Positions 5,295 to 62,296 of a DNA stretch of 64,000 bases are shown here, piece by piece. The notes beneath the pieces are model-generated. The model ran no database searches and had not been told where the DNA came from. It worked only from the letters and a program-made list of their open reading frames with translations. Within the stretch, counting starts at the first letter, position 1; each line of letters opens with the position of its first letter. Source of the stretch: a virus; IMG/VR virus record IMGVR_UViG_3300018059_000546; one strand, 5' to 3'. The translations under genes were made by a program, and so were the position numbers.

Positions 5295-8200
5295 TCATGC
5301 TTTTTCTACGATGTCAGTATCATCAAAATCATCCAAGTCGATCTCTTCAGCATTTTCGCTAAGTACTGTAGCGTTTGTAACCTTCTTAGATTCGAGCTTT
5401 GCCTTCATTCTCTCGAGAGCATGACGAAGATCCTGCGACAAACCAGGATCGTCACCATTCAAGAATGGATCGATATGAAGAGCGTATTCTTTAGTTTCAG
5501 AGACAGCTCCCAATTTAGAGAATGATTTCATGAATGACGAATCGGTCGGATCCTTCATTTCAGGAGTGTCATTTCCAGTCATACGAGACAGGTCCGGCAT
5601 CCCATGCGTAGTAGAACCATCGTGTCGTCGGCGCTTTTTGTTATATAGAAGCCTATCCAGGTGGGTCTGCACCTTGACAGGGGAGTCGTCATCCTTCATA
5701 GACAATCGAATTGGTGCATCCGTAGTATCACTCGGGTCGTCGTGCGCAAGAACAAGGTCGTTACCCCGATATTCACCCGCCGTGACAACTTCTGATCCTG
5801 CGAGCGATGGGGACCCGCTAGGGGCCCCTCCCATATCGGGAGTTCCACCGGACAGATCTTCGCCACCAAGATCCATGCCTTCGTCCGTTTCTCCACCACC
5901 GCCAAGAGAAGCAGCTTCGCGGGCGGCAGCACCCTGAGCATCATCAAGAATCTCCTTTTCGACCTGGACAATCTCTTCTGGAGTCATTCCCATGACATTC
6001 AAACGGAGCCAATCCCTTGAAAGGAGACCTTCAGGAGACGTTCCCATGATTTCGAACTTAGAACGAATGAGCTCAAGTTTCTGCTGCTGAGCAACAGATG
6101 AGGGATTCGACAAGCGCAGGCTAAAGTTTACTAGATCCTGATCAGAGTATCCTGCTACTGCAAGATGGACCATGGCCAACTTGTTCAATTCTGAGATGAT
6201 TGTCCTTTGAATCATAGAAATCGTGCGACTAAAGCGAACATCGATCTGCGCCAGAGAAGCTTTGCTTCCTAGAGCTTCTTCGAACCCAAGGTACGCCTTT
6301 GGAACCTGCAATGCGGCGAACAACTTCTTCTGAATGTATTCGACATCGTTAACTGTTCCAACGTTTTCTCCACCCTTAAGAGTGTCGATTCTAGTTCCGG
6401 ACTCCGTTCCTCTAACTGGAAGGAAGTAGTCTTCCTCAATTGAGAGGGGTGAGTATCTTTGGTCTGTTCGTCCTGAAGCTTGATCGGACACAAGAGCTCC
6501 ACGAAGGGTGGTCTTCACCTGCTCCATATAGTGACCAACCTCGTCGGGTGGGATAGCTCCAATATCGATGTAGAAGACTCTTCGTTCAGGAGAACGAGTA
6601 ATCCGGTACGTAAGCATTGCATCTTCGATGAGAATCAACTGACGCCAAATGCGTCTCGCACCTTCGACGACAGATGATCCGTAAGGAAGGAACATGTCGT
6701 TACCGAGAAGGCGCATGTGCGTGACTTCCCAGTTATCCAATTCTTTGTTCTTGTCTACCCATCGAAATTTGATAGCGAACGGATCATTTGGATCGTAATT
6801 CTCGACCCTTTCGATATGATTAACAGGAATCGGAACAGCATTCACAACCCCTAATTCTGGATCGACGTCATTGAGAAGAAATGCATCACCGTACTTGCAG
6901 AGGTTTCTAACCCACGGTCGGAGGTTGAATTCAATGTTCAAGTTGTTGTAGAAGAGATCTTCGAGGACACTTCTAATCTTACTGTTCGTAGAATAGATGT
7001 GAAGAACTCTACCCTTCTCATCACTGGAACATGTTTCATCTGCGTACAGGTTCAAGCATGCATTTAATTCAGGAGTGTTGTGAGAAATTACAGTTGACGT
7101 CGCGAAATTCTTGTAACCGTCAACTGTTAGATCGTATAGATCGATTTCTCCATAGTATTCGACTGAAACGACCTTCATGTTCTCGTAGGTAGCGGTAAAC
7201 TCTTTGTAGTTCTTGTATCCTCTGAGCTGGATGCGTTTTTCGACCTTACACCTCGAATACCCCATCTTCGCAGCGAGTTGTTTGAGGTTCATTCCCTTTT
7301 CGTAAGCTGCACAAACTGTTTCGAATGTGATGCTCTTATCGAATTTCGGATTGCTTTCTGCCTGGTTATCCCACCCACCATTTCTCCAACCGGGAGAATA
7401 CGCTTTGGCGAAAGTAGAAAAATTCTTGAACCCTTTTTCTTCCAATCTATTTCCAATTACACTTAGATGAGCATCAAGAGCTTCCTGTAGTTTGTTGATG
7501 TTGAAACCAACACGCTCGCATGTTTCGAGAATTCTTCCAAAAGTGATGTCATGACGCTTGACAGGATTGTGGTTTTTCATGAACTCAGAATGGTTCTTTT
7601 TGAACTTATCGATCCATTCTTGGTTTTCAGGGGCCCACTTTTTTCCATTGACGATACGAGCATGATAGGCACGATGCTCTGCATCATCCATGATGAGAAG
7701 ATTACTAGGAGTGTTATCAGATTTCTTGAAGTTGATGTGATGAACAACTTCTGTTTCTGCAACTTCCCGGCCGGCGACAAACTCAGCTACGAGATTGTGT
7801 TCAGATTGCCATCCGTTGTAACCTCTGTCAGACATCGTGTACACCCAACGATATCCAGTTGTTTCTGCTTCTTCTTTCCTAGCATACAAGTCTCTTCGAT
7901 AGAACGGCATCATGGCCATCCCAGTCTTCAGTTCTCCGAGCTTACAATAGGTTCCGTCCCGTAACATCAAACGATGTTCGAAAGATCCGATGATTTCCTG
8001 TCCATCGTCGAACGTAACTTTCCACGATTTATCTGTCGTAGTTTTTCGAGCCTGTTTTCCAAGTGTTGGAACGATATGGCCTTTCTCATGGTTATAAGCA
8101 TAGACGATGAACGTTTTATCAGGATTTTTCTCACACTCCTCAGCAAGCTTTCCGATTTCTACGAACCCATCTTCGTATTCTGGAGATGCTATAAGTGTAT

Positions 8201-8453
8201 GATATGATAGGCACATTTCCATTTCGCAATAGTCCTGATACCTCGACAATCTCTCTTGAATAGAGAACGTATTGTTCGTGATCTGGTTGTACGTCGGAGT
8301 GACAGAACGCTGGAAGATCCGAGCAGCAGAGGACTTACCCCTACCCGGAACAGCGATCGAGGTGTCCACCGATACGATCTTCTTTCTGACCACAGGTCCG
8401 CTCCGAAACAATCTTGTGAGTCTCTGGAAGACATTTTCCTTATCTTGGGCCAT
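5295..8453 (-). CDS. Portal protein (T4 gp20-like) containing an intein
   Basis: Motifs WRQLILIEDAMLTYRITRSPERRVFYIDIG, EEDYFLPVRG, IDTLKGG, KKLFAALQVPK. Confidence 0.95.
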   Translation of the reverse strand: MAQDKENVFQRLTRLFRSGPVVRKKIVSVDTSIAVPGRGKSSAARIFQRSVTPTYNQITNNTFSIQERLSRYQDYCEMEMCLSYHTLIASPEYEDGFVEIGKLAEECEKNPDKTFIVYAYNHEKGHIVPTLGKQARKTTTDKSWKVTFDDGQEIIGSFEHRLMLRDGTYCKLGELKTGMAMMPFYRRDLYARKEEAETTGYRWVYTMSDRGYNGWQSEHNLVAEFVAGREVAETEVVHHINFKKSDNTPSNLLIMDDAEHRAYHARIVNGKKWAPENQEWIDKFKKNHSEFMKNHNPVKRHDITFGRILETCERVGFNINKLQEALDAHLSVIGNRLEEKGFKNFSTFAKAYSPGWRNGGWDNQAESNPKFDKSITFETVCAAYEKGMNLKQLAAKMGYSRCKVEKRIQLRGYKNYKEFTATYENMKVVSVEYYGEIDLYDLTVDGYKNFATSTVISHNTPELNACLNLYADETCSSDEKGRVLHIYSTNSKIRSVLEDLFYNNLNIEFNLRPWVRNLCKYGDAFLLNDVDPELGVVNAVPIPVNHIERVENYDPNDPFAIKFRWVDKNKELDNWEVTHMRLLGNDMFLPYGSSVVEGARRIWRQLILIEDAMLTYRITRSPERRVFYIDIGAIPPDEVGHYMEQVKTTLRGALVSDQASGRTDQRYSPLSIEEDYFLPVRGTESGTRIDTLKGGENVGTVNDVEYIQKKLFAALQVPKAYLGFEEALGSKASLAQIDVRFSRTISMIQRTIISELNKLAMVHLAVAGYSDQDLVNFSLRLSNPSSVAQQQKLELIRSKFEIMGTSPEGLLSRDWLRLNVMGMTPEEIVQVEKEILDDAQGAAAREAASLGGGGETDEGMDLGGEDLSGGTPDMGGAPSGSPSLAGSEVVTAGEYRGNDLVLAHDDPSDTTDAPIRLSMKDDDSPVKVQTHLDRLLYNKKRRRHDGSTTHGMPDLSRMTGNDTPEMKDPTDSSFMKSFSKLGAVSETKEYALHIDPFLNGDDPGLSQDLRHALERMKAKLESKKVTNATVLSENAEEIDLDDFDDTDIVEKA
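7077..8213 (-). mobile_element. Intein (379 aa) with HNH endonuclease domain, inserted after portal residue 80
   Basis: N-terminal CLSYHTLI, block B GSFEHRL, C-terminal YDLTVDGYKNF...ISHN followed by Thr; internal VVHHINFKKSDNTPSNL (HNH). Confidence 0.92.
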
Positions 8454-43033: not shown

Positions 43034-44182
43034 ATGGGCGGGAACGCTAAAGCTGTCTATCGAAACACCGGAACCGTCCAAATATTCGACGGACGGTTGG
43101 CGTACGCTGAAAAGATCGATCTAAGAGAAGTTCAACCTGAACAGTTCGTAGACGATGTGAAGAAGCTCGTTCTAGAATTGAACAAGCCGGGAGTTTGGCA
43201 GCCGTCTTCCGTAGAAAATGAAACGATCTACTTCGGATCTTTCGACTCGCTTAGAGATCCAACAATTTCGAAGGAAGAGTACGTTACTTCCAAACCCATG
43301 ATGGGTGACGTGGACATTGCAGTACCCTCCGTACGCATGGAGGCTTTGCACGACTTTCTAGTCCAACTCGAGGGCAAGGATATCACACCCAACTTCACGT
43401 ACATCGGACAGAATCGCGTCGCTTTTAGCGGGAAGAAAGTCAACACGATATTCTTCTACAAGCGATGCAAGAAATTCCTGCAGGTTGACTTCGAAGGGAT
43501 GACATTCTTAAATAACGCACCCGAAGAGTACGTCAAGTTCATGCGTTCGAGCCCATGGAGAGATGTCAAGGAAGGTCTCAAGGGGCTTGGCCACAAGTAT
43601 CTTCTCACCTGCTTGGCAAGAATAGTGTCGTACAAGAGCAACATAGTCATCCTGACGGATAAATCTCCGATCCATCCGGCGAACAAGGTCAGGATCAAGC
43701 TCTTAGATGAAATTCCTCACTCGTTGACGTTTTCGAAGGAAGGACTTCGAGATAAGTTGAAGCAGCAGACCCGTCTAGGATATCCTGTCATGGTCGAAGG
43801 GAAGTACGCGTACAAGGAAGTTTCGAAGGAAGAGTCGATCGGAGAAACTAGCGTAAAGAAGATCTTCAAACGACTCTTTTCCAGAGAACCTCAAGGTAAA
43901 GATCTTGATGATTTTAGATCGTACATGGGGACTCTCGACCTGTGCCAGAAGTACCTCACCCGTGGAAAGATCGAATCCATCTACGAGTACATGGTGAACG
44001 TCAAACTATGGGGCCCCAAGGCCCAGGCCCTATCGAGGGATTCAGCCACGGATGATAAAGACATCAAAGAGATGATCATTTACACGATGGAGAGTAAATT
44101 CCCATTCTTGGTCGGAAACCTCCCACTGGAGGAGACCATGGACAAATACTACCTGAAGTACGAGGAGCGTGAGGAAGAGTGA
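43034..44182 (+). CDS. Putative Pol-beta-superfamily nucleotidyltransferase
   Basis: MGGN start, FGS...GDVDIAV...QVDF catalytic pattern. Confidence 0.6.
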   Translation: MGGNAKAVYRNTGTVQIFDGRLAYAEKIDLREVQPEQFVDDVKKLVLELNKPGVWQPSSVENETIYFGSFDSLRDPTISKEEYVTSKPMMGDVDIAVPSVRMEALHDFLVQLEGKDITPNFTYIGQNRVAFSGKKVNTIFFYKRCKKFLQVDFEGMTFLNNAPEEYVKFMRSSPWRDVKEGLKGLGHKYLLTCLARIVSYKSNIVILTDKSPIHPANKVRIKLLDEIPHSLTFSKEGLRDKLKQQTRLGYPVMVEGKYAYKEVSKEESIGETSVKKIFKRLFSREPQGKDLDDFRSYMGTLDLCQKYLTRGKIESIYEYMVNVKLWGPKAQALSRDSATDDKDIKEMIIYTMESKFPFLVGNLPLEETMDKYYLKYEEREEE

Positions 44183-44922
44183 TGGAACATATCAAGATTC
44201 AAAAGTTGTTGACAGATTACGACATCGATCTCAGCACCGTTTCATTGGGAGATTTCGACCACATCGGAGAATACACGGCCAAGAAGAGCCGTGATAAGAA
44301 TTCCCCTCTGTACGCAAATACCGGAGCCTACTTCAGACCGAACTACGAACGAGGAATCCTGATCTACTCTCTCATCAAGCGTTTCAAGCTCAAGTCGTTC
44401 CTTGAAATCGGATTCGGTAGAGGTTACTCTGCCATCTGCGCCGCCAAGGCATTCCATGACATCGGTGTCGACGGAAAGGTGACGACCATTGACCCCGTTT
44501 TTGATAAAGAACAGCTCGAAACCATGTCCCAGGTATTTCCGAAAGAATGGCTCGAAAAGATCGATCTGAAACAGGGTCTTTCGCAGCAAGTTCTCAAGGA
44601 GATGGATGGACCATGGGATTTCGTCTACATCGACGGCGACCATCATGCAGCAGCCGTTCAGGCCGACTGGGATCTGACGAAGAACAAGTGGGGAAGTTTC
44701 CTGCTCTTCGATGACTATCACCTACCTTCGAAGAAAGAAGCGAACATCGAATGTGCGATCGCAATCGATAGAATCGATGAAACTAAATTCGATGCTTCTA
44801 AGAAGTTGATCATCATGGATCGCAGAATTTTCTTGGACGATAGACGATACACGGACGAAGCCATAGATTATGGTCAGTGTTTACTAGCAAAGAATAGTTT
44901 GCTAGAATCTGATGGATGGTGA
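44179..44922 (+). CDS. Class I SAM-dependent methyltransferase (Methyltransf_24-like)
   Basis: LEIGFGRGYS, TIDP, FVYIDGDH, LFDDY. Confidence 0.88.
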   Translation: MMEHIKIQKLLTDYDIDLSTVSLGDFDHIGEYTAKKSRDKNSPLYANTGAYFRPNYERGILIYSLIKRFKLKSFLEIGFGRGYSAICAAKAFHDIGVDGKVTTIDPVFDKEQLETMSQVFPKEWLEKIDLKQGLSQQVLKEMDGPWDFVYIDGDHHAAAVQADWDLTKNKWGSFLLFDDYHLPSKKEANIECAIAIDRIDETKFDASKKLIIMDRRIFLDDRRYTDEAIDYGQCLLAKNSLLESDGW

Positions 44923-50603: not shown

Positions 50604-51296
50604 GTGTGTCAGGGGTATCGAGCTCAAAAAGTATGTAAATCTTGCGGAATGCAATTTCAGGTTGTAGGCAAGACTAGACACCAACAATTCTGTAGCAAGC
50701 CTTGCATCAACAAGGGACGAACACATACAGAAGAATGGAAGTTAGAGATGTCTACGCGCAATTCTGGATCTGGTAATCCATTCTATGGCAAGAATCACTC
50801 ACTTGAAACGAAGCTCTTTCTTAAAAACAGAATTGAAGGTTTGACGTGGGAAGAACAAATGGGAGAAGAAAGAGCTTCTCTAAGGAAAGAAAAACAGAGT
50901 GAAACTTACACTGGAGAAGGAAATCCGTTCTACGGCAAAACGCATACTGTTGAAACTAAAAACAAGATCTCAGAATCTCATCGAGATTGCTCTGGATCAA
51001 ATAATCCAATGTTCGGACAGGGAGAAAAACTAAGGGGAAACAAGAATGGTGCATGGGAGGGAGGAATTTCCCATGATCCATATTGCGGATTGTTTACTGA
51101 AAATCTCAAGACAAAGATAAGAACACGTGATAGATTTACATGTAGAGTGTGTGGGAAGAATGGTAGTCATGTTCACCACATTGATTATGACAAGTTGAAC
51201 AGCGTTGAAGATAATCTTGTAACTTTGTGTCATAGTTGCCACATGAAAACGAATTTTGGTCGAGAAAATTGGACGGAGTTCTTTCGTAATGAATAA
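50604..51296 (+). CDS. HNH homing endonuclease with NUMOD3 repeats
   Basis: GNPFYGKNHS, GNPFYGKTHT, NNPMFG; RDRFTCRVC...VHHIDYDKLN...NLVTLCHSCH. Confidence 0.88.
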   Translation: MCQGYRAQKVCKSCGMQFQVVGKTRHQQFCSKPCINKGRTHTEEWKLEMSTRNSGSGNPFYGKNHSLETKLFLKNRIEGLTWEEQMGEERASLRKEKQSETYTGEGNPFYGKTHTVETKNKISESHRDCSGSNNPMFGQGEKLRGNKNGAWEGGISHDPYCGLFTENLKTKIRTRDRFTCRVCGKNGSHVHHIDYDKLNSVEDNLVTLCHSCHMKTNFGRENWTEFFRNE

Positions 51297-52284
51297 GAAG
51301 AGCGCGATGATAACGGGATCGACGGGACAAGATGGATCGTACTTGTCAGAACTTCTCCTTTCTAAGGGATACGAAGTCTACGCCCTAGTGCGTCAGACGA
51401 CACAATTCACACCTGACAAGTACGGTCACCTCCGTAGCTGCATGTCCGACCCCCATTTTCACATCGTCACCGGAGATGTGAACGATCAACTACGGATGCA
51501 GGATCTCATTCGAGAGATCCATCCAAATGAAGTCTACAACCTGGCTGCCCAAAGTCACGTCGGAGAATCGTTCAAACAACCGATCAGCACCTGCGAGACG
51601 ACAGGTATGAGCGTCATCAAAATTCTAGAAGCCATCAGACAGGTCGATAAGAACATTAGATTTTATCAAGCTGGAAGTTCGGAGCAGTTTGGCAAGGTTT
51701 GCGAAACGCCACAAAACGAAAACACAAAATTTCACCCCCGCAGTCCTTACGGGTGTGCTAAAGTGTTCGCACACAACGCTACTGTAAACTATAGGGAAGC
51801 TTACGATATCTACGCTGTCAGCGGGATTCTCTTTAACCATGAGAGCGAACGTCGAGGAGAGAACTTCGTAACTAGGAAGATTACCAGAGCGATCGGTCGT
51901 ATCAAAGCGGGAATCCAACACGAGCTAGTGCTTGGTAACACAGATGCGACACGCGATTGGGGGCATGCTGAAGACTATGTCGAAGCCATGTGGCTGATGC
52001 TTCAGCAGGAAACTCCCAAGGATTACGTCATCGGAACGGGAGAGACCCACACGGTCCAAGATTTCATCGACATCGCATTCGCTCACGCGGGTCTCGATCC
52101 CAAGAAGTATGTGAAGACGAATCCCGATTTACACCGCCCTGCAGAAGTCGATACCCTCTGTGCTGACCCTAGTCTTGCAAAGAAGGAACTCGGTTGGTCT
52201 CCGAAGACGAACTTCTCTGAGCTTGCGAAAAGAATGGTCGATTACGACATCGCACTTGCTCTCAAGGAGAAAGAACAGCAGTGA
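51289..52284 (+). CDS. gmd: GDP-mannose 4,6-dehydratase
   Basis: ITGSTGQDGSYLSELLL, YNLAAQSHV, SPYGCAK, GILFNHES, FVTRKIT, RDWGHA. Confidence 0.96.
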   Translation: MNKKSAMITGSTGQDGSYLSELLLSKGYEVYALVRQTTQFTPDKYGHLRSCMSDPHFHIVTGDVNDQLRMQDLIREIHPNEVYNLAAQSHVGESFKQPISTCETTGMSVIKILEAIRQVDKNIRFYQAGSSEQFGKVCETPQNENTKFHPRSPYGCAKVFAHNATVNYREAYDIYAVSGILFNHESERRGENFVTRKITRAIGRIKAGIQHELVLGNTDATRDWGHAEDYVEAMWLMLQQETPKDYVIGTGETHTVQDFIDIAFAHAGLDPKKYVKTNPDLHRPAEVDTLCADPSLAKKELGWSPKTNFSELAKRMVDYDIALALKEKEQQ

Positions 52285-54325: not shown

Positions 54326-55128
54326 ACATAGCGTATCTGCTCGTAACGTGTTCTAGAGAAAAAACGAGAGACCTCATGCTTAAGAAGGTCATCGAAAGTC
54401 TCAAAATTCAAGATGCTTGGAAAGTTTGGGAGAGCGACTTTTACGTTTTCGATAATGCATCGACATACGAACATACGCAAGTAGAATTGATGTCATCCTT
54501 TAAGAAAGTCATCTTAGCAGAGGACAATTATGGATACTGGAGCGCCGTGAATTGGTTTGTAGAGTTCTCTCAAAATCGAGGATACGACTACGTTTACATC
54601 ATGGAAAGCGATTGTGTTCATCACAACATCGAACAACTCCATGACGGAGTAAAGTTGCTTGAACTAGATCCCTCGTTGGGAATGTTGAGAGCTGCAGAGT
54701 TTTCTTTAGAGAACAAACATTTGTACGATAAAGCCCAACGTCATCCAGGATCTATCACTTCTGAGTGGTTCACACAGAGCAATTTTTTCACAAAGGAAAC
54801 GGCTTCATACGAACAAACCGAGGTTCCTAACGTCTATAAGACGAACTTAGTTGCGAAAGTTTGTGGACTTCATAGAGTCTCTGTTCTGAAAGCGGTGTTG
54901 TTTCAATTGCAGTCGATTGAATGGTTTATTGAAGTTGATTTTCAACGCTTTTACCACAAGAAGTACCCATTCAATGCAATATTGGATGGCGGGATATACA
55001 ATTCAACACCGGCTTACGAACCAAATGTAATTGCAGGAAGTCTCGTCAAAGAAGCAGTTGACGAGAATGGTTATCGTAAGACGAGAGAAGGATTCATCAC
55101 TCCTGTTACGGAGATGAGGGTAAAATGA
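54322..55128 (+). CDS. GT2-like glycosyltransferase
   Basis: VFDNAST, NYGYWSAVN, YIMESD. Confidence 0.7.
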   Translation: MNIAYLLVTCSREKTRDLMLKKVIESLKIQDAWKVWESDFYVFDNASTYEHTQVELMSSFKKVILAEDNYGYWSAVNWFVEFSQNRGYDYVYIMESDCVHHNIEQLHDGVKLLELDPSLGMLRAAEFSLENKHLYDKAQRHPGSITSEWFTQSNFFTKETASYEQTEVPNVYKTNLVAKVCGLHRVSVLKAVLFQLQSIEWFIEVDFQRFYHKKYPFNAILDGGIYNSTPAYEPNVIAGSLVKEAVDENGYRKTREGFITPVTEMRVK

Positions 55129-56186
55129 AGTTTTTCATCATTGGTGGAACGGGATCTCTTGGAAAGAAATTGATCGATAGACTCATCGATGTGCATGAAG
55201 TTTTTGTGTACTCACGTGATGAATCTAAACAATGGTCTATCAAGAATGACTTACTTCATCGCGGAACGGCTCCCGTTACGTTTTTCGTTGGAGATATCAG
55301 AGACAAGAATCGGTTGAAGGATGCCCTTCGCCAATCTCGACCAGACATCGTCATTTCTGCAGCAGCTCTTAAACAAGTCGATGTTTGTGAGATCAATCCT
55401 GACGAAAGCATAAAAACGAACCTCATTGGAACTCAAAACGTGATTGATGCTGTGAATGAGTACGCTCACAGCATGACGACAGGCATCGGAAACATCAAAA
55501 AGGTCACTCTTCTATTCGTCAGTACAGACAAGGCATGCGCACCTGTCAACACGTACGGAATGAGCAAAGCTCTTTCAGAACGACTCGTTACGAGCCAAGC
55601 AAAGACCGGTCTCAAGAATGTGAAGTACGTCTGCGTTCGTTACGGAAACGTTCTGGAATCCAGAGGGAGCATCATTCCGTTGTTCAGGTACCAGGCAGAG
55701 AATTCCGAGTACTTGACGGTCACTAATCCTGACATGACCAGATTCCTCATGACCCTCGACCAAAGTGTCGACCTGATCTTTAAAACTATCGAACTCGGAG
55801 CATCAGGAGAAACGTGGATTTCTAAGCTTCCTGCAATGAGAATCGGTGATATTGCTGACGTGTTCGCTGAACACTACGGGAAAGAAGTGAAGAAGATCAA
55901 TGAGCGTCCTGGAGAAAAGATGCACGAAGATCTCATCAACGAGTCTGAATCTATTAGAACTCGTCTCGTTGACAGTGGAAAATACTACGCTATCCAACCT
56001 GCTTTCATCGTAGACTCAGAACCAAGGTTCGAATATTCTAGCAATGATGACGTGATGACCAAGGTAGAACTCAGAGATTTTCTCACGAAGATCGAGGTTC
56101 TTGATGCTCCAATGGAACGGTTCTCTGGTCAAAAGATCGAAGAAATTGTCTCAACCGCTCCTGTCGCTAAGCGAGAGAAAAAGTGA
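55125..56186 (+). CDS. UDP-GlcNAc 4,6-dehydratase (PseB/CapE/FnlA family)
   Basis: GGTGSLG, SRDESKQ, GDIRD, AAALKQV, STDKACAPVNTYGMSK, RYGNV..SRGS, MTRF, RPGEK. Confidence 0.9.
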   Translation: MKFFIIGGTGSLGKKLIDRLIDVHEVFVYSRDESKQWSIKNDLLHRGTAPVTFFVGDIRDKNRLKDALRQSRPDIVISAAALKQVDVCEINPDESIKTNLIGTQNVIDAVNEYAHSMTTGIGNIKKVTLLFVSTDKACAPVNTYGMSKALSERLVTSQAKTGLKNVKYVCVRYGNVLESRGSIIPLFRYQAENSEYLTVTNPDMTRFLMTLDQSVDLIFKTIELGASGETWISKLPAMRIGDIADVFAEHYGKEVKKINERPGEKMHEDLINESESIRTRLVDSGKYYAIQPAFIVDSEPRFEYSSNDDVMTKVELRDFLTKIEVLDAPMERFSGQKIEEIVSTAPVAKREKK

Positions 56187-57352
56187 AAGAACGAAAAGAA
56201 ATCCATCTGTTCAAGGCACATCTTGATGTAGATCTTGCGATGGTCTATCTTAGAGATGCTCTCGAATCTGGATTCTTAAACGAAGGTCAGCAAGTAACAG
56301 ATCTCACGAAGGAATTCTCTCGTCTTCTAAAGTCCGACAAGTTGATCTTGGTCAATAGTTGCACGTCAGCTTTGACGATGGCTCTAAAGTTAGCAGGAGT
56401 TGAAGTTGGTGACGATGTTGTGACAACGTCTATGACATGCGTCGCAACTAACATGCCTATCAAACATGTTGGAGCAAACATCGTATGGGCTGACGTGGAC
56501 CCAGATACGGGAATGATCAGTGCAGAAACTCTACAAGCCGCAATCACATCCAAGACGAAAGCCGTGATGGTAGTTCTGTGGGCCGGCAACCCTTCTGAGC
56601 TGGAAGAAATCCAGAACATTTGTAAGACCAATGATGTCAAGCTCATTTTAGATGCTGCTCATGCGATGTGCGCAAAATACGATGGAAGGCCAATACACGA
56701 ATTCGCAGATTTTTCTTGTTACTCGTTCCAAGCAATCAAGCATGTGACCACCGGTGACGGAGGAGCTCTGATCTGTTCCAGCAAAGAAGATCATCTTCAA
56801 TCAAAGAAGATGAAATGGTTCGGCCTCGATCGCGATAAAGCGAAGGACGAAAAGGGAAATTGGAAGGGTCAGCAGTGGGATGTTGACATCGAAGATGTTG
56901 GATACAAGTTCAACCTCAACAACATATCCGCAGCCATCGGAATGTCTCAGGTTTCTCATGTCAATAGGATCATGAGTAAACACCGAGCAAACTCCGAGAC
57001 GTATGACGAACTCTTTACGACGACTGACCTGATCGAGCCAATCAAGAAAGACCCGAAAGCAGATGGATCTTCGTGGGTGTACACGATCGTTTTGTGTGAC
57101 AAGCTCGCTCCGAAACGCGATGAGATCCTTAAACGACTCAATGATGAAGGCATCAGAGCGGGCGTCGTACACGTTCCAAACCATGAATATACAGTCTTCA
57201 GAGATGAACGCAAGGATCTTCCTGGTGTCAAACGATTTTTTGATCGTCAGTTCTCGTTACCATGTGGGTGGTGGATGAAGAAATACGACGTATCCTATGT
57301 TTTCGATAGGTTGATGACCCACGTCGAAATCTGTGCTAAGGACCAAGAATGA
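56183..57352 (+). CDS. DegT/DnrJ/EryC1/StrS sugar aminotransferase
   Basis: VNSCTSAL, DAAHA, SFQAIKHVTTGDGG (PLP lysine), GYKFN, SLP. Confidence 0.93.
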   Translation: MKERKEIHLFKAHLDVDLAMVYLRDALESGFLNEGQQVTDLTKEFSRLLKSDKLILVNSCTSALTMALKLAGVEVGDDVVTTSMTCVATNMPIKHVGANIVWADVDPDTGMISAETLQAAITSKTKAVMVVLWAGNPSELEEIQNICKTNDVKLILDAAHAMCAKYDGRPIHEFADFSCYSFQAIKHVTTGDGGALICSSKEDHLQSKKMKWFGLDRDKAKDEKGNWKGQQWDVDIEDVGYKFNLNNISAAIGMSQVSHVNRIMSKHRANSETYDELFTTTDLIEPIKKDPKADGSSWVYTIVLCDKLAPKRDEILKRLNDEGIRAGVVHVPNHEYTVFRDERKDLPGVKRFFDRQFSLPCGWWMKKYDVSYVFDRLMTHVEICAKDQE

Positions 57353-58149
57353 GAATCCACATTGTTACAAATGCTTCCACGCTACCTTACCACGACTACT
57401 GTATCGACAATCATCGTAAGCTAGCCAAGAATCCAGAAAAGTTAGAATTTTTCTCCTACTGCTTGGACGCACAAAGCTATTTTCGTCTGACATCAGAGGG
57501 TAAGAATTCTGTTCGCATCGCTGACAGTAGCGGTTCAGTTGGACATGCCCTGGGGATCCAGGCATTTCTTGGAAATCTCAAACCGAATGAAGTCAATATC
57601 ATCACAGATTCGGACTGTATTGTTCTAATGAAAGAATGGGATGTTGCGATCGAGAACATTCTAACGACTGCTGGTATTGCAGGAACGACGTACGAAGATA
57701 TCGGTGGTCATAGTTCGGGTTCGGGTGCTGTTCAAACGTACAAGAAGATTCCTAACTTCACATGGGCAGTTCTTTCTCCGAACTACAATTGGGATTTCGA
57801 CGCCATGTGTCAGAAGCAATCAAATATGTTGATCGAAACTCCAGAAATGGAAGCGACATTCAACATTCCGATCGGTTCGTCTTTACTTCGGGAAGGAAAT
57901 TGGAAACTTCCTGTTCATCTTAGAGAACGCAACATTCCGTACTACAGTTTCGATTTTGTTAGGCCCACGTCACCCCAGGCGAAGGCCGTGTTAAGCGGTG
58001 AGGATTACCACACCGAATACCAATTGAAGGACGGAAGACCCTTCGTGGCTCACCAACGTGGCTCCATGAGCAAAGCCTTCCGTAGCCACCACCTGTCCAA
58101 GTCTTTCTATGACGTATGCGAGGCGTACCTGAACAAGGAGAATGCATGA
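57349..58149 (+). CDS. Hypothetical protein, possible GT-A-like
   Basis: GSVGHALG...ITDSD (DxD); island context. Confidence 0.5.
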   Translation: MRIHIVTNASTLPYHDYCIDNHRKLAKNPEKLEFFSYCLDAQSYFRLTSEGKNSVRIADSSGSVGHALGIQAFLGNLKPNEVNIITDSDCIVLMKEWDVAIENILTTAGIAGTTYEDIGGHSSGSGAVQTYKKIPNFTWAVLSPNYNWDFDAMCQKQSNMLIETPEMEATFNIPIGSSLLREGNWKLPVHLRERNIPYYSFDFVRPTSPQAKAVLSGEDYHTEYQLKDGRPFVAHQRGSMSKAFRSHHLSKSFYDVCEAYLNKENA

Positions 58150-58877
58150 AACCAATTCTCATCACGGGAGCTTCTGGTGGAATCGGTCTTGCGTTGGTAG
58201 AGTACTTCCTATCAACAGGACACCGGGACATCGTTTGTCAGTATCGATCTGGAAATTCGGCGCTTTCGGAACTCTTTGCAAAGCACGATCTTGACTACTA
58301 CAAACACACGTTCCCAGCTGATCTAACTGAAGAGCTCCAGGTTAGTTCTCTACACTCTCATGTGAATGCTCACTTTGGGAAGATATGGGGAGTGATCAAT
58401 CTCGCTGGTTCTTCGTCTAACGGTATGAGTTGGAGACTTTCTAAAGATGATTTTTCTAAAGTCATCAACAACAATCTCATGACAACATTCTTAGTTTCGA
58501 AGGAATTCATTCCTGAAATGCGAGAGCAAAACGGCGGAAGGATCATCAATGTATCTAGCGTTGTTGGTTTCACCGGAGCTGCGGGAGCGTCTCACTACAG
58601 CGCTGCCAAAGCCGGCATCGTAGGGTTGACAAAATCGATGGCTCTCGAACTTGCTAACAAGAACATCACAGTCAACGCTTTGGGGCTCGGGTACTTCGAA
58701 TACGGATTGATCAATCATCTCTCTCCTGCAATTCAAGAAGATGTCAAGAATAAGACTCCTGCCAAGCGTTTTGGAAAAGGAAATGAGATCGGGGGAGCAA
58801 TCAAGTTCCTGATGGGTGATGATGGAGCTTTCACGACAGGGCAGGTCATTCACATCAACGGTGGAATCTACCTGTGA
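58146..58877 (+). CDS. FabG/PhaB-like SDR (3-oxoacyl-ACP/CoA reductase)
   Basis: ITGASGGIG, INLAG, GRIINVSSVVG, YSAAKAG, TGQVIHINGG. Confidence 0.9.
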   Translation: MKPILITGASGGIGLALVEYFLSTGHRDIVCQYRSGNSALSELFAKHDLDYYKHTFPADLTEELQVSSLHSHVNAHFGKIWGVINLAGSSSNGMSWRLSKDDFSKVINNNLMTTFLVSKEFIPEMREQNGGRIINVSSVVGFTGAAGASHYSAAKAGIVGLTKSMALELANKNITVNALGLGYFEYGLINHLSPAIQEDVKNKTPAKRFGKGNEIGGAIKFLMGDDGAFTTGQVIHINGGIYL

Positions 58878-59791
58878 ACGAAATCGAATACAGGCCTCTC
58901 AAACTAGATGAGGACAAGAAAAAATTCAAAGCCCTCCATAACATTCTTTTCAAGAATACAGCCATGTCTTCAGAGTGGATGGACTGGTACTTCGAACTTG
59001 CTAAAGACGTTAGAACCTACGGGGCTTTTGACAATGAGAATCTCGTGGGAATCTGGTGTGTCGAAGCAAAAGAACTTAGTGTGGGCCGTAGAAACACGAA
59101 ACCTGTCGGACGATGTTTTTCTGTTGGTGTACATCCCAGTTTTCAACGTCGAGGAATCTTTCTCGCTCTCAGCAAGTTTGCAATCGAACAAGAGAAAAAG
59201 AAGGGTCAGTACGACTACATCTTGGGATTTCCGCAATTTGGAAGATCGGTCATCGATGGCCATCTAAAGGCTGGATGGGAACACGCCCAAGACATCGATG
59301 TGTTTAGCATCAAACCAAGTCTCGTCGACGAGAAAGCTTCGTTGAATAGCGTAGGACGTTTGGAAAAATTTGATAACGAAGATTCTTTTGTTCCAAAGGG
59401 TGGATTCAAAGAATCAGCGAGATATAACACACGTCGATGGCTACGCCATCCAGACAACCACTACGTCTGTCTCGATTATGAACCTGGAAGTTTTATCGTT
59501 GTGAAACCGTATGGAGATTCCTGCCACATCCTAGGGTTAGAAGGTCCTAACGAAGATGTTATTGAACTTCTTGAAGCTGTGAAGACACTTGCTAGGCGGC
59601 ATGCTTGGAAAGAAATCAACATGTGGTGTGCCTCGAATGATCCCAAGAAAAGCGCTGTAAAAAGCTGCGGATTCTCGTTAGGATCTGAAAGAGGAACAGG
59701 CGTCAAATTACTGGCTGTCAGAATCAATGCGATTGAACCACTTGTTCTTGACAAATGTAGTTTCCAAATGGGCGTCGAGGAGGTCTATTAG
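58874..59791 (+). CDS. GNAT-family acyltransferase
   Basis: VGVHPSFQRRGIF acyl-CoA motif A. Confidence 0.82.
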   Translation: MNEIEYRPLKLDEDKKKFKALHNILFKNTAMSSEWMDWYFELAKDVRTYGAFDNENLVGIWCVEAKELSVGRRNTKPVGRCFSVGVHPSFQRRGIFLALSKFAIEQEKKKGQYDYILGFPQFGRSVIDGHLKAGWEHAQDIDVFSIKPSLVDEKASLNSVGRLEKFDNEDSFVPKGGFKESARYNTRRWLRHPDNHYVCLDYEPGSFIVVKPYGDSCHILGLEGPNEDVIELLEAVKTLARRHAWKEINMWCASNDPKKSAVKSCGFSLGSERGTGVKLLAVRINAIEPLVLDKCSFQMGVEEVY

Positions 59792-59794
59792 TCA

Positions 59795-60664
59795 ATGAAT
59801 TACTCTCTACGACCCATCGAAGAATCTGATCATGAATGGCTTGTCGTTCTACATAACGATCCGCTTGTACTGAAAAACGTTACTGATCCCACGATAATCA
59901 CTCTAGAGTCTCATCTCAAATGGTGGGATGGCATCAAAGACTCGAAGAGTGAAGAACGTTTCATTTTCTGCGTGGATGGGATGAGAGCAGGGTTCACCAA
60001 GTTCTACAACATCGACCGTGCAAACAAAAACTGCAAGCTCGGTGCAGATCTTCACGAATCTTTTCGTGGTAAAGGACTTGCGAAACACATGTGGAACTTG
60101 ATGATCGATCGTTGTTTTCAAGTTCACAGATTACATCGAATTGCTTTGACAACAGCAGAGTACAATGATGTTGGAATTTACACGTATCTATCGTTAGGAT
60201 TTCGCATTGAAGGTCGAAATAAATGCTCTCTTCTAAGAGATGGAAAATTTTTTGATGAAGTTTGCATGTATATGCTCGAATCATTTCGCAATGAAAAACC
60301 GACACGTAGAGAAGGACTACAAAAATGTGCCAGTTGTTCAGAATTTATGATCAAAAAGAGCCATACGCACAAAGTTTGCAAAACCTGCACTCCTACGAAT
60401 TCGTCTCGTAGTCGATATAGACGATACAAAATTTCCAGCAAACAACTGCAAGAGATGATCAACGATCAACATGATTGTTGTTTTTTGTGCACAAAAAAAT
60501 TCACTAATCACCAAAGAGGAATGCATGTAGTTCATGATCATGAACTAGGGACCGTTAGGAAACTTCTTTGCCATCGATGCAATTGGATTGTCGGACTAAT
60601 TGAAAAAATGACATCTGATGAATCGCTAGATAAAGTGCTTGACTACGTCAAAATGTTCAAATGA
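59795..60664 (+). CDS. PseH/RimJ-like GNAT fused to an Endonuclease VII-like domain
   Basis: LRPIEESD, FRGKGLAK, YLSLGFRIEG; C-terminus CCFLC...HDH..GTVRKLLCHRCN. Confidence 0.8.
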   Translation: MNYSLRPIEESDHEWLVVLHNDPLVLKNVTDPTIITLESHLKWWDGIKDSKSEERFIFCVDGMRAGFTKFYNIDRANKNCKLGADLHESFRGKGLAKHMWNLMIDRCFQVHRLHRIALTTAEYNDVGIYTYLSLGFRIEGRNKCSLLRDGKFFDEVCMYMLESFRNEKPTRREGLQKCASCSEFMIKKSHTHKVCKTCTPTNSSRSRYRRYKISSKQLQEMINDQHDCCFLCTKKFTNHQRGMHVVHDHELGTVRKLLCHRCNWIVGLIEKMTSDESLDKVLDYVKMFK

Positions 60665-61563
60665 AAAAAGTTCTACAGATAGTTGATAGTCTTGAGTACG
60701 TAACGACGAACGGGTTCCAACACCAACTTCTAAAAACTCTTCAGCAAGAAACAGATCTGCTGACGATTCCCATCACTAAGTTGGAAAAATTTCACTGTGA
60801 AGGTCGGATCGTGCTATCGACCCTTAAGTTGAGATCTGTCGTAAAACATGTTGATTTGCTACAATTCGTTCTCGGATCAACTCCGCTGTATGTATACGAC
60901 CAAGACGCTTGGGAATCGTTCATGGATGAAGGGTCTTACAGAGGAAGCTATAAGATGATCAGTTCAAAACTCAATGTCGTGAGTTTTTTAAATCCATCCA
61001 AGTGGTGGTCAGACCACATCAATTCGATGGGATCACCCAGCAAATTCATCAAAATTTGGATCTTACCAGAGTACTGCGGATCAAAACAATTCTCTCAGAG
61101 GACAATAGACGTGGGTTTCATGGGACAACTTCACCCATTCAGAAAAGAATCATTCGAATCGTTGAAAGTTCTGGGGATCGATGTCACAACTTTTCCGGGT
61201 GAGAGCTACGCTGCTTACCTTACTAAGGTTTCTGACATGAAATTCTTTCCACATTACGAACCCGCACGATGGCACATCGATGGAAAGTTAATCGAATGCA
61301 GCGCACTCTACGGTAAAACTGTTGAAGTCATGGCTCGAGGAACATTCTGTTTGAGAGAGAAATGTGGTGAGGCCGCACATTGGAACTTGTCCCAAAATCC
61401 CTTGTTACTTGAGTTCGAATCTCTTGAGGAGTTCGTGGAAAAAGTTCGTCACGTGCAATCTCTCCCTGTAGAAGTTGTTGATTCTATGATTGAAACTGGA
61501 GTGAAAATGATCGTAGAAGACATTGGTTGGAAAACTGTCGTGGAGGCTATCGATGAAGCCTAA
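60661..61563 (+). CDS. Hypothetical GT-B-like protein
   Basis: IDVGFMGQLHPFR...KTVEVMARG. Confidence 0.55.
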   Translation: MKKVLQIVDSLEYVTTNGFQHQLLKTLQQETDLLTIPITKLEKFHCEGRIVLSTLKLRSVVKHVDLLQFVLGSTPLYVYDQDAWESFMDEGSYRGSYKMISSKLNVVSFLNPSKWWSDHINSMGSPSKFIKIWILPEYCGSKQFSQRTIDVGFMGQLHPFRKESFESLKVLGIDVTTFPGESYAAYLTKVSDMKFFPHYEPARWHIDGKLIECSALYGKTVEVMARGTFCLREKCGEAAHWNLSQNPLLLEFESLEEFVEKVRHVQSLPVEVVDSMIETGVKMIVEDIGWKTVVEAIDEA

Positions 61564-62296
61564 GATCTTTGTCGGGACCATGCGAAGTGGAGAAGAAGAG
61601 TTCGAAGAATCTCGAAAGTTGATTCTCCAGCAGAAAGATGTCGACGTTGTTCACTTCATTGTAGACAGCTTGCCAGAATACGAAGCCCATAATGCTCTCT
61701 GGGAAACATGGAACGATTGCAAGTGGAACTTTGAAGTATTCATCAAAGTGGACGCAGACACATTGATCGATGATCACACGAAGTTCTCGCAAATCGCTGC
61801 AGAATTCGCTAAGAACCCTCGTTTGACTGGAATGCAGATCCCGTTACATGATTACTTCATGGATGGACCGATCCTCGGGTTGAACTGCTTCACTCCGCAG
61901 GTCGTGTTCATCCACGCGAAGAGTCGTTTACATGCTGACCATGCGGACACCAATCATGACATCGTCTATCGAGGAGAAGCTGTTACCCACCTAACTCCAG
62001 CTGGCAGGCACTGCGCATATCCGAATGATCGGCAGGCATTCCACTACGGTTTGCATCGCATGAAGAAGAACCAACGAGACACTATCGTAAGCGTCTATCA
62101 TGCCTGGAAGAAGAGCGGAGGAAATGGGAGATTGCTTGCTCTTCATGGAGCTCGAACAGCAGCCATTTCTTCAGTAGACCATGATTACAACTCTTCAACT
62201 TTTGACGGAGCTTTCGCTCAACTCATGAGTGACGGAATTTTTGAGAATGGAAAGCTTTCAGACATGGAAGCATTCATGAGAATGCTCGGAGCTTAG
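61553..62296 (+). CDS. GT-A-like protein
   Basis: FIKVDAD (DxD); GGAGG RBS before ATG 61553. Confidence 0.6.
   Translation: MKPKIFVGTMRSGEEEFEESRKLILQQKDVDVVHFIVDSLPEYEAHNALWETWNDCKWNFEVFIKVDADTLIDDHTKFSQIAAEFAKNPRLTGMQIPLHDYFMDGPILGLNCFTPQVVFIHAKSRLHADHADTNHDIVYRGEAVTHLTPAGRHCAYPNDRQAFHYGLHRMKKNQRDTIVSVYHAWKKSGGNGRLLALHGARTAAISSVDHDYNSSTFDGAFAQLMSDGIFENGKLSDMEAFMRMLGA

Follow-up and report, generated by a model that had tools for sequence, protein, structure and literature searches.

A reductase and tandem N-acyltransferase gene pair as a putative hydroxyacyl cassette in the glycan locus of an uncultured jumbo phage

We analysed a stretch of 64,000 nucleotides (the window) from the IMG/VR record IMGVR_UViG_3300018059_000546, which represents an uncultured jumbo phage of ~350 kb. 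A dense glycan locus lies on its plus strand between ~40 kb and 62 kb, and within this locus we focused on a run of six open reading frames (ORFs) at 55125-60664 that appears to encode a pathway for an acylated amino sugar. The six ORFs are co-oriented and translationally coupled, with 4-nt overlaps at most junctions (Table 1). Dozens of independent loci contain the same genes together, which puts the arrangement far beyond chance. A preliminary description of the window had listed a 4,6-dehydratase, an aminotransferase, a glycosyltransferase-like ORF, a FabG-like reductase and two acyltransferases of the GCN5-related N-acetyltransferase (GNAT) family in tandem, and this inventory was confirmed for all six genes and their families.

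The dehydratase scored 276 bits with the PseB model TIGR03589, which is under the cut-off of 407.75. Its best match in the PDB was 4TQG (258 bits), the closest solved relative is Mg534, and the TDK and YxxxK motifs are kept. The DegT aminotransferase likewise remained under the cut-off of the PseC model TIGR03588 (246.5 bits; cut-off 423.5). It matched the PDB entries 4zwv/4xau, CalS13, ArnB and PseC, and the catalytic Schiff-base lysine is present in the motif SFQAIKH.

No match in Pfam, NCBIfam or PHROG was obtained for the protein of the third gene. Its AlphaFold2 model, with a predicted local distance difference test (pLDDT) value of 93.1, was assigned by Foldseek to the glycosyltransferase A (GT-A) fold, the top matches being B3GNT2, GlyE, RmlT, TarS and Mimivirus R699. 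We found 43 homologues, mostly on large phage-like contigs; the contig recorded for the protein itself measures 350,418 bp. The aspartates of the D87-x-D89 motif are invariant among the homologues. The ORF first described as glycosyltransferase-like thus has a predicted GT-A fold with an invariant DxD motif, and the protein is a candidate transferase for the amino sugar.

The fourth gene encodes a short-chain dehydrogenase/reductase (SDR). Its ORF, which ends at 58877, could start at 58116 or 58146, and we consider 58146 most likely because this ATG overlaps the upstream TGA (ATGA) and is preceded by AAGGAG 7 nt upstream. The protein of 243-253 aa carries all expected motifs (TGxxxGIG, N, S and YxxxK). 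Its best NCBIfam matches were FabG and acetoacetyl-CoA reductase models, and it stayed below every curated FabG and PhaB cut-off (TIGR01830, FabG: 199.4 bits; cut-off 297.75).

The product of the fifth gene did not match any PDB sequence. It was modelled as a tandem GNAT (AlphaFold2, pLDDT 90.9), and Foldseek retrieved Eis-like GNATs (3n7z, E 2.6e-14; 2i00; Eis), the glucosamine N-acetyltransferase 5kf1 (itself a tandem GNAT) and N-myristoyltransferase. Eis structures carry an SCP2-like third domain at the C-terminus. The length of the phage protein (305 aa vs 380-400 aa for the Eis-like targets, a difference of ~90 residues) and a template modelling (TM) score of ~0.5 by target length suggest that this third domain may be missing. 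The family is small: 38 representative clusters were found at E<=1e-30 among 1.84 billion proteins, followed by a sharp fall in score.

The sixth gene encodes a small GNAT (residues 4-163) that continues in frame into an EndoVII-like region (167-287; Endonuclease_7 match at 208-286). The GNAT part scored 51.9 bits with PseH (cut-off 93.1) and 53.9 bits with SpeG, both under cut-off, and its best sequence matches were spermidine acetyltransferases. It is a candidate for the N-acetyltransferase of the core route. The EndoVII fusion was seen in this phage only; in five relatives, the GNAT is a stand-alone protein of ~160 aa. Three further loci (L002, L004 and L010) encode a GNAT with a shorter C-terminal extension, reaching query residues ~198-220 and overlapping the next gene. 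The fusion and the extensions look like the remnant of a mobile endonuclease insertion.

Table 1. Genes of the run at 55125-60664 and related genes of the glycan locus
Predicted product	Position	Strand	Unit	Basis
GDP-mannose 4,6-dehydratase (Gmd)	51256..52284	+	accessory	PF16363 420.7 bits; TIGR01472 411.6 bits (cut-off 415)
UDP-GlcNAc 4,6-dehydratase, PseB/FnlA/Mg534 type	55125..56186	+	core	Polysacc_synt_2 PF02719 257.7 bits
PLP (pyridoxal phosphate)-dependent NDP-4-keto-sugar 4-aminotransferase, DegT	56183..57352	+	core	PF01041 293 bits
GT-A-fold glycosyltransferase, unnamed family	57349..58149	+	core	predicted fold and invariant DxD
Classical FabG-like SDR, predicted 3-oxoacyl reductase	58146..58877	+	cassette gene 1	adh_short 155.7 bits
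Tandem-GNAT N-acyltransferase, small unnamed family	58874..59791	+	cassette gene 2	Acetyltransf_9 PF13527 42.9 bits (cut-off 25)
Small PseH/SpeG-like GNAT fused in frame to EndoVII-like domain	59795..60664	+		PF13302 46.4 bits; PF02945 54.3 bits
CgeB/YkvP-like (Glyco_trans_1_2) glycosyltransferase	60661..61563	+		structure TM 0.79-0.80 to PF13524 clusters; no Pfam match
Conserved unnamed protein, possibly GT-A-like	61523..62296	+		no Pfam match; weak PF00535 lead

We compared the proteins of the window by tblastn with eight IMG/VR loci that had been found via the GT-A gene. Seven of these loci (seven also for the dehydratase taken singly) share a common core that consists of GT1 and GT2 glycosyltransferase genes, two unnamed proteins, the dehydratase, DegT, the GT-A protein, the small GNAT without EndoVII and two downstream proteins. 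The SDR and the tandem GNAT were present in a single locus, where they adjoin; six loci lacked them yet kept the core. The run is therefore made up of two units, a core (dehydratase, DegT, GT-A protein and small GNAT) and an optional SDR/tandem-GNAT cassette. This split had been missed in the preliminary description. Among phage-like loci, the tandem GNAT directly follows the SDR, but the location of the pair relative to the core varies, with at least four positions seen. Two phage-like loci (L049 and L052) contain the cassette with no small GNAT found within 6 kb, which agrees with an alternative use of the two acyltransferases on one amine.

The pair was also seen on a viral contig with another backbone (L011:6725-12657). 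There, a dehydratase, an extended-SDR epimerase/reductase, an FdtA/RmlC-like cupin and a 79-aa ORF precede the SDR and the tandem GNAT, and a DegT and a hexapeptide acyltransferase follow them. More than one sugar route seems to use the cassette.

Gmd behaves differently from what had been proposed. A second dehydratase had been placed at 51289 and is indeed present (Table 1), but the idea that it shares the single aminotransferase with the UDP-N-acetylglucosamine (UDP-GlcNAc)-type dehydratase was not upheld. Gmd is accessory, being found in two of nine phage loci (the window and L005), and varies independently of DegT, the SDR and the GNATs. Only one of the eight GT-A-anchored loci contains it, and this is not the locus with the SDR pair.

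A search with an alignment of tandem-GNAT homologues yielded 4 viral, 8 genomic and 35 metagenomic loci, with some duplication between collections (L009 and L002 are one contig; L043 and L035 have the same layouts as L010 and L012). A tandem-GNAT homologue was present in 48 loci, 21 of which had enough flanking DNA. An SDR gene was located within 1.2 kb of the tandem GNAT in 18 of the 21 and within 5 kb in 20, and nine had an adjacent gene for FabH (β-ketoacyl-ACP synthase III, KAS III; ACP, acyl carrier protein). In phages and in several bacterial phyla alike, the tandem GNAT adjoins DegT in almost all loci.

Among the named bacteria with homologues of the phage cassette, most belong to Bacteroidota. 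Seven bacterial loci, that of Tenacibaculum ovolyticum DSM 18103 and six others, have the order dehydratase, DegT, DegT-like, tandem GNAT, FabH and SDR, followed by Wzx and glycosyltransferases; they include loci of an uncultured Tenacibaculum and of Bacteroides, Bacteroidales and Chitinophaga metagenome-assembled genomes (MAGs). By tblastn, FabH was detected in seven of eight bacterial homologue loci, and the locus FabH scored above the curated cut-offs (TIGR00747, 347.5 vs 292.1; PRK09352, 375.4 vs 249). A third layout runs DegT, DegT-like, SDR, tandem GNAT, FabH. Four metagenome loci have the SDR-GNAT-FabH order, and since their SDRs are 49-59% identical to that of the phage, the phage pair looks like the trio without FabH. 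A WOR-3 MAG locus with Wzx and Wzy carries a tandem GNAT and an SDR 61% identical to the phage SDR, with no FabH. A paper on the Tenacibaculum maritimum O-antigen makes no mention of these genes.

In bacterial loci, the second DegT-like gene is directly upstream of the tandem GNAT or of the SDR-GNAT pair (L015:8902-9978, L014:8042-9172). Its product has arginine at the position of the catalytic Schiff-base lysine (TVRLPNT and PNRHLTT vs AIKHVTT) and glutamate at the histidine of DAAHA. Judged by these residues, it is probably a conserved PLP-fold partner of the FabH/SDR/GNAT module and not an aminotransferase. We had considered that this gene provides a second amine for the tandem GNAT and dropped the idea, as arginine replaces the lysine and the phage lacks the gene.

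We then placed the SDR in a midpoint-rooted tree, with housekeeping FabG and other SDR paralogues as outgroups. All 12 SDRs linked to a tandem GNAT formed one clade (support 100/99) outside of which housekeeping FabG and the paralogues fell, in a tree with outgroups from three Bacteroidota genomes only and without PhaB or sugar-reductase references. The window SDR was sister to that of the WOR-3 locus. The phage SDR is set apart from the FabG model by score and from the three housekeeping FabG genes by tree.

Taken together, the core genes support the earlier suggestion that a dehydratase, a DegT enzyme and an N-acyltransferase form a route to a 4-acylamino-4,6-dideoxy sugar. From gene content, folds, catalytic motifs, synteny and phylogeny, we infer the substrates and products as follows. 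The dehydratase, by its family membership, would convert UDP-GlcNAc into a UDP-4-keto-6-deoxy-N-acetylhexosamine, which DegT would aminate at C4. In the core route, the small GNAT would N-acetylate this amine, and the GT-A protein and other glycosyltransferases would pass the sugar to a non-lipid acceptor, perhaps a virion protein. Where the cassette is present, the SDR and the tandem GNAT would instead turn this 4-amino sugar into a product with a 3-hydroxyacyl group on the 4-amino nitrogen, most likely 3-hydroxybutanoyl. The SDR would reduce a 3-oxoacyl group with NAD(P)H, either on a host acetoacetyl thioester or, after transfer, on the N-acetoacetyl sugar. The tandem GNAT is predicted to carry out the N-acyl transfer, by which the 4-amino sugar would receive its hydroxyacyl (or acetoacetyl) group. 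The pathway would yield a UDP-2-acetamido-4-(3-hydroxyacyl)amino-2,4,6-trideoxyhexose, whose configuration, set by the stereochemistry of the dehydratase, cannot be read from the sequence.

KAS III condenses acetyl and malonyl units to acetoacetyl, and a reductase turns this into 3-hydroxybutanoyl. A tandem GNAT joined to a FabG-like reductase, and in bacteria also to KAS III, is therefore the signature of a short 3-hydroxyacyl chain. On balance, we favour the hydroxyacyl cassette as the explanation of the optional gene pair, with slightly better than even confidence. The earlier proposal that links a β-ketoacyl reductase to the acyl group gains comparative support from the SDR/tandem-GNAT pairing, the FabH neighbours and the separate SDR clade.

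Several observations weigh against the hydroxyacyl explanation. A tblastn search with the Tenacibaculum FabH was negative for the window and for the viral loci, and five related viral records also yielded no FabH. These five records also gave no PP-binding match that would indicate ACP; the window was not searched with an ACP model. The keto-acyl precursor would therefore have to come from the host, and if the host already made 3-hydroxybutyryl-ACP, the benefit of a private phage reductase would be doubtful. The small GNAT is retained in the phage, so that two acyltransferases would compete for one amine. The Eis-like fold of the tandem GNAT says nothing on acyl-chain preference. Two related bacterial contigs (L059 and L060) have a tandem GNAT with no SDR or FabH nearby, which means that the tandem GNAT can work without them, perhaps with acetyl-CoA. 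The narrow choice of references in the SDR tree belongs here as well.

Some of these points would also fit a different function of the SDR, namely as a nucleotide-sugar oxidoreductase that, for example, converts the 4-keto-6-deoxy intermediate of the UDP-GlcNAc-type dehydratase or of Gmd into a 6-deoxy sugar. In that case, the tandem GNAT would simply add another N-acetyltransferase, and hydroxyacyl groups would not be formed. Within the window, Gmd is without a reductase or epimerase partner, the SDR is under every curated FabG/PhaB cut-off, neither FabH nor ACP was found in the searches above, and some tandem-GNAT loci lack both SDR and FabH. However, the SDR co-varies with the tandem GNAT and not with Gmd: L005 has Gmd without the SDR, and L002 and L010 have the SDR without Gmd in the DNA retrieved for them. 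Known 4-keto-6-deoxy sugar reductases are extended SDRs of ~300 aa. The phage SDR is a shorter protein of the classical FabG type, unlike these enzymes, its orthologues adjoin FabH in bacterial loci, and separate extended-SDR genes elsewhere in related phage genomes could partner Gmd. We therefore consider the oxidoreductase function improbable.

The nature of the acyl group is a separate question. A longer host-derived 3-hydroxyacyl group, or one of the 3,5-dihydroxyhexanoyl type, could be attached in place of 3-hydroxybutanoyl. Long acyl chains are the substrates of N-myristoyltransferase, whose fold matches that of the tandem GNAT. In addition, 3,5-dihydroxyhexanoyl amino sugars occur in Flavobacterium psychrophilum and Vibrio cholerae O100, and the phage has no detected FabH that would set the chain length. 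The bacterial loci point to the shorter chain, as one FabH and one reductase fit a single condensation to C4. Moreover, the ORFs of the Tenacibaculum locus are tightly packed, with no second ketosynthase and no room for an ACP gene, and the C4 group 3-hydroxybutanoyl is a common N-acyl group on such sugars in the literature. A chain other than C4 thus appears unlikely.

It is also conceivable that the substrate of the tandem GNAT is a protein, a polyamine or the completed glycan, and that the SDR-GNAT pair is a metabolic passenger of the glycan locus. Eis-type GNATs acetylate proteins and aminoglycosides, and the best sequence matches of the small GNAT are spermidine acetyltransferases. We regard this as very unlikely, since the tandem GNAT lies directly beside DegT in nearly every locus, from phages to several phyla, and inside Wzx/Wzy loci.

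Building on the hydroxyacyl explanation, we tentatively propose a wider scenario, which is possible but rather doubtful as a whole. Aquatic jumbo phages would add to their virions, or to a different non-lipid acceptor, a glycan that contains or ends in 2-acetamido-4-(3-hydroxybutanoyl)amino-2,4,6-trideoxyhexose, made with a keto-acyl precursor from the host. The tandem GNAT would represent a family of N-transferases dedicated to hydroxyacyl or acetoacetyl groups. Phages and Bacteroidota O-antigen or capsule loci would trade the cassette as a plug-in that alters the surface chemistry of a shared amino sugar.

Pathways of this kind are already known. The viosamine island of Pseudomonas syringae pv. 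tabaci 6605 consists of vioA, vioS (KAS III), vioR (reductase), vioB, acp, vioM and vioT and makes Qui4N(3-hydroxy-1-oxobutyl)2Me on flagellin; deletion of vioR abolishes the sugar (PMC3927599). The scheme of the authors has an N-acetoacetyl sugar intermediate, so that reduction may follow transfer (PMC3927599). Like the phage run, the island combines a 4-aminotransferase, a FabG-like 3-oxoacyl reductase, an N-acyltransferase and a dedicated glycosyltransferase in one locus. It differs in having the KAS III gene vioS, for which no counterpart was found in the phage, and acp, which is missing from the related viral records. Its acyltransferase is of the VioB type, whereas those of the phage are GNATs (PF13527 and PF13302), and its sugar starts from dTDP-glucose, whereas that of the phage probably derives from UDP-GlcNAc via the PseB/Mg534-like dehydratase. 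The island is bacterial, with flagellin as its acceptor, whereas the run described here is phage-encoded. Qui4N(3-hydroxybutanoyl) is also known from other sources, e.g. Escherichia coli O49.

In F. psychrophilum, wfpC-wfpG are predicted to make UDP-Qui2NAc4N(3,5-dihydroxyhexanoyl) for the O-polysaccharide (PMC6519341). There too, a UDP-GlcNAc-derived 2-acetamido-4-amino-2,4,6-trideoxyhexose would be joined with a hydroxyacyl group from genes resembling type II fatty acid synthesis within the sugar locus, and the host belongs to Bacteroidota, the phylum of most named cassette homologues. The wfpC-wfpG genes encode two ketosynthases, an ACP and a PglD-type acyltransferase, whereas the phage cassette consists of a reductase and a tandem GNAT only. 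The PseB/PseC/PseH pathway resembles the core in its inverting-type UDP-GlcNAc 4,6-dehydratase relative, DegT and adjoining small GNAT. All three phage enzymes, however, score under the respective equivalog cut-offs, as given above. Giant viruses encode fibril sugar pathways, such as Mg534-536 of Megavirus, the genes for diNAcBac (N,N'-diacetylbacillosamine) of Moumouvirus and R141/L136/L142 of Mimivirus (PMC10117803). These are likewise virus-encoded, bacterial-type routes to rare amino or deoxy sugars beside many glycosyltransferases. They are used for virion glycosylation, as may be the case in the phage. They differ in belonging to viruses of eukaryotes, and no hydroxyacyl module is reported for them (PMC10117803).

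What is new in the phage is the two-gene form, in which a reductase and a tandem GNAT replace the VioB- or PglD-type acyltransferase. Also new are the action of the cassette as a mobile plug-in of a jumbo-phage glycan locus and the link to a small uncharacterised protein family common to Bacteroidota polysaccharide loci. The source of N-hydroxyacyl groups on bacterial surface sugars has rarely been established, and gene neighbourhood ties the tandem GNAT and the reductase to this role. With T. ovolyticum DSM 18103, a cultured strain carries the locus, so that the proposed origin is testable. Large uncultured phages appear to make and vary rare nucleotide sugars with a swappable cassette, in addition to encoding glycosyltransferases. 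Cassette swapping bears on virion glycosylation, host recognition and antigenic variation.

Pseudaminic acid is an unlikely product, in agreement with the preliminary description. None of the ORFs scanned at 40-64 kb encodes PseG, PseI (NeuB-type) or PseF, and no NeuB was found in the five related viral records, one of which is 86% and another 90% complete. The sugar therefore probably stays a hexose. Among the phage ORFs with family matches, none encodes Wzx, Wzy or lipid-linked initiation functions; several ORFs are unnamed. This absence hints at a protein acceptor.

Downstream of the small GNAT, the CgeB/YkvP-like gene is conserved in seven of the eight viral loci. The CgeB/YkvP-like family is known from spore-coat maturation. 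The gene that follows is present in seven of the eight viral loci as well, and its PF00535 lead is carried by 17% of one structure cluster. Upstream of the run, the glycan locus contains several GT1 and GT2 genes, an O-methyltransferase-like gene, Gmd and homing-endonuclease genes. One of the latter, a NUMOD3/HNH gene at 50604-51296, is directly upstream of Gmd. Gmd precedes the same GT1 gene in L005 as in the window. The endonuclease genes may mark insertion points of accessory sugar genes in the glycan locus.

Outside the glycan locus, the window encodes a portal protein with an HNH insertion, a large terminase, an SbcC-like nuclease and PhoH. The nearest terminases in GenBank phages, those of Microcystis phage Mel-JY01 and the Flavobacterium phage "immuto" group, are ~41-42% identical. 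Megablast of the window at 51-61 kb against GenBank gave no close phage relatives, and tblastn with the GT-A gene and the tandem GNAT gave no matches among GenBank phages. The SDR yielded generic FabG matches only (~33% identity); several of these are annotated fabG/fabD genes and look like bacterial DNA filed under phage names. SDR peptide patterns run against IMG/VR recovered no relative. Scans for promoters and terminators gave sites no more numerous than in shuffled sequence. A 2025 paper on aquatic jumbo "moraphages" (PMC12619734) gives them core glycosyltransferase genes, Clp protease and PhoH and predicts Bacteroidota as their hosts; neither "dehydratase" nor "acetyltransferase" occurs in its text.

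The portal ORF (5295-8453, minus strand; 1052 aa) has an HNH endonuclease-like segment at ~179-317, ahead of the portal domain at 591-843. This segment may be an intein or an inserted endonuclease. Most related loci retain the O-methyltransferase-like gene (44179-44922; Methyltransf_24/Methyltransf_3), which is reminiscent of VioM, the enzyme for O-methylation of acylated viosamine in P. syringae.

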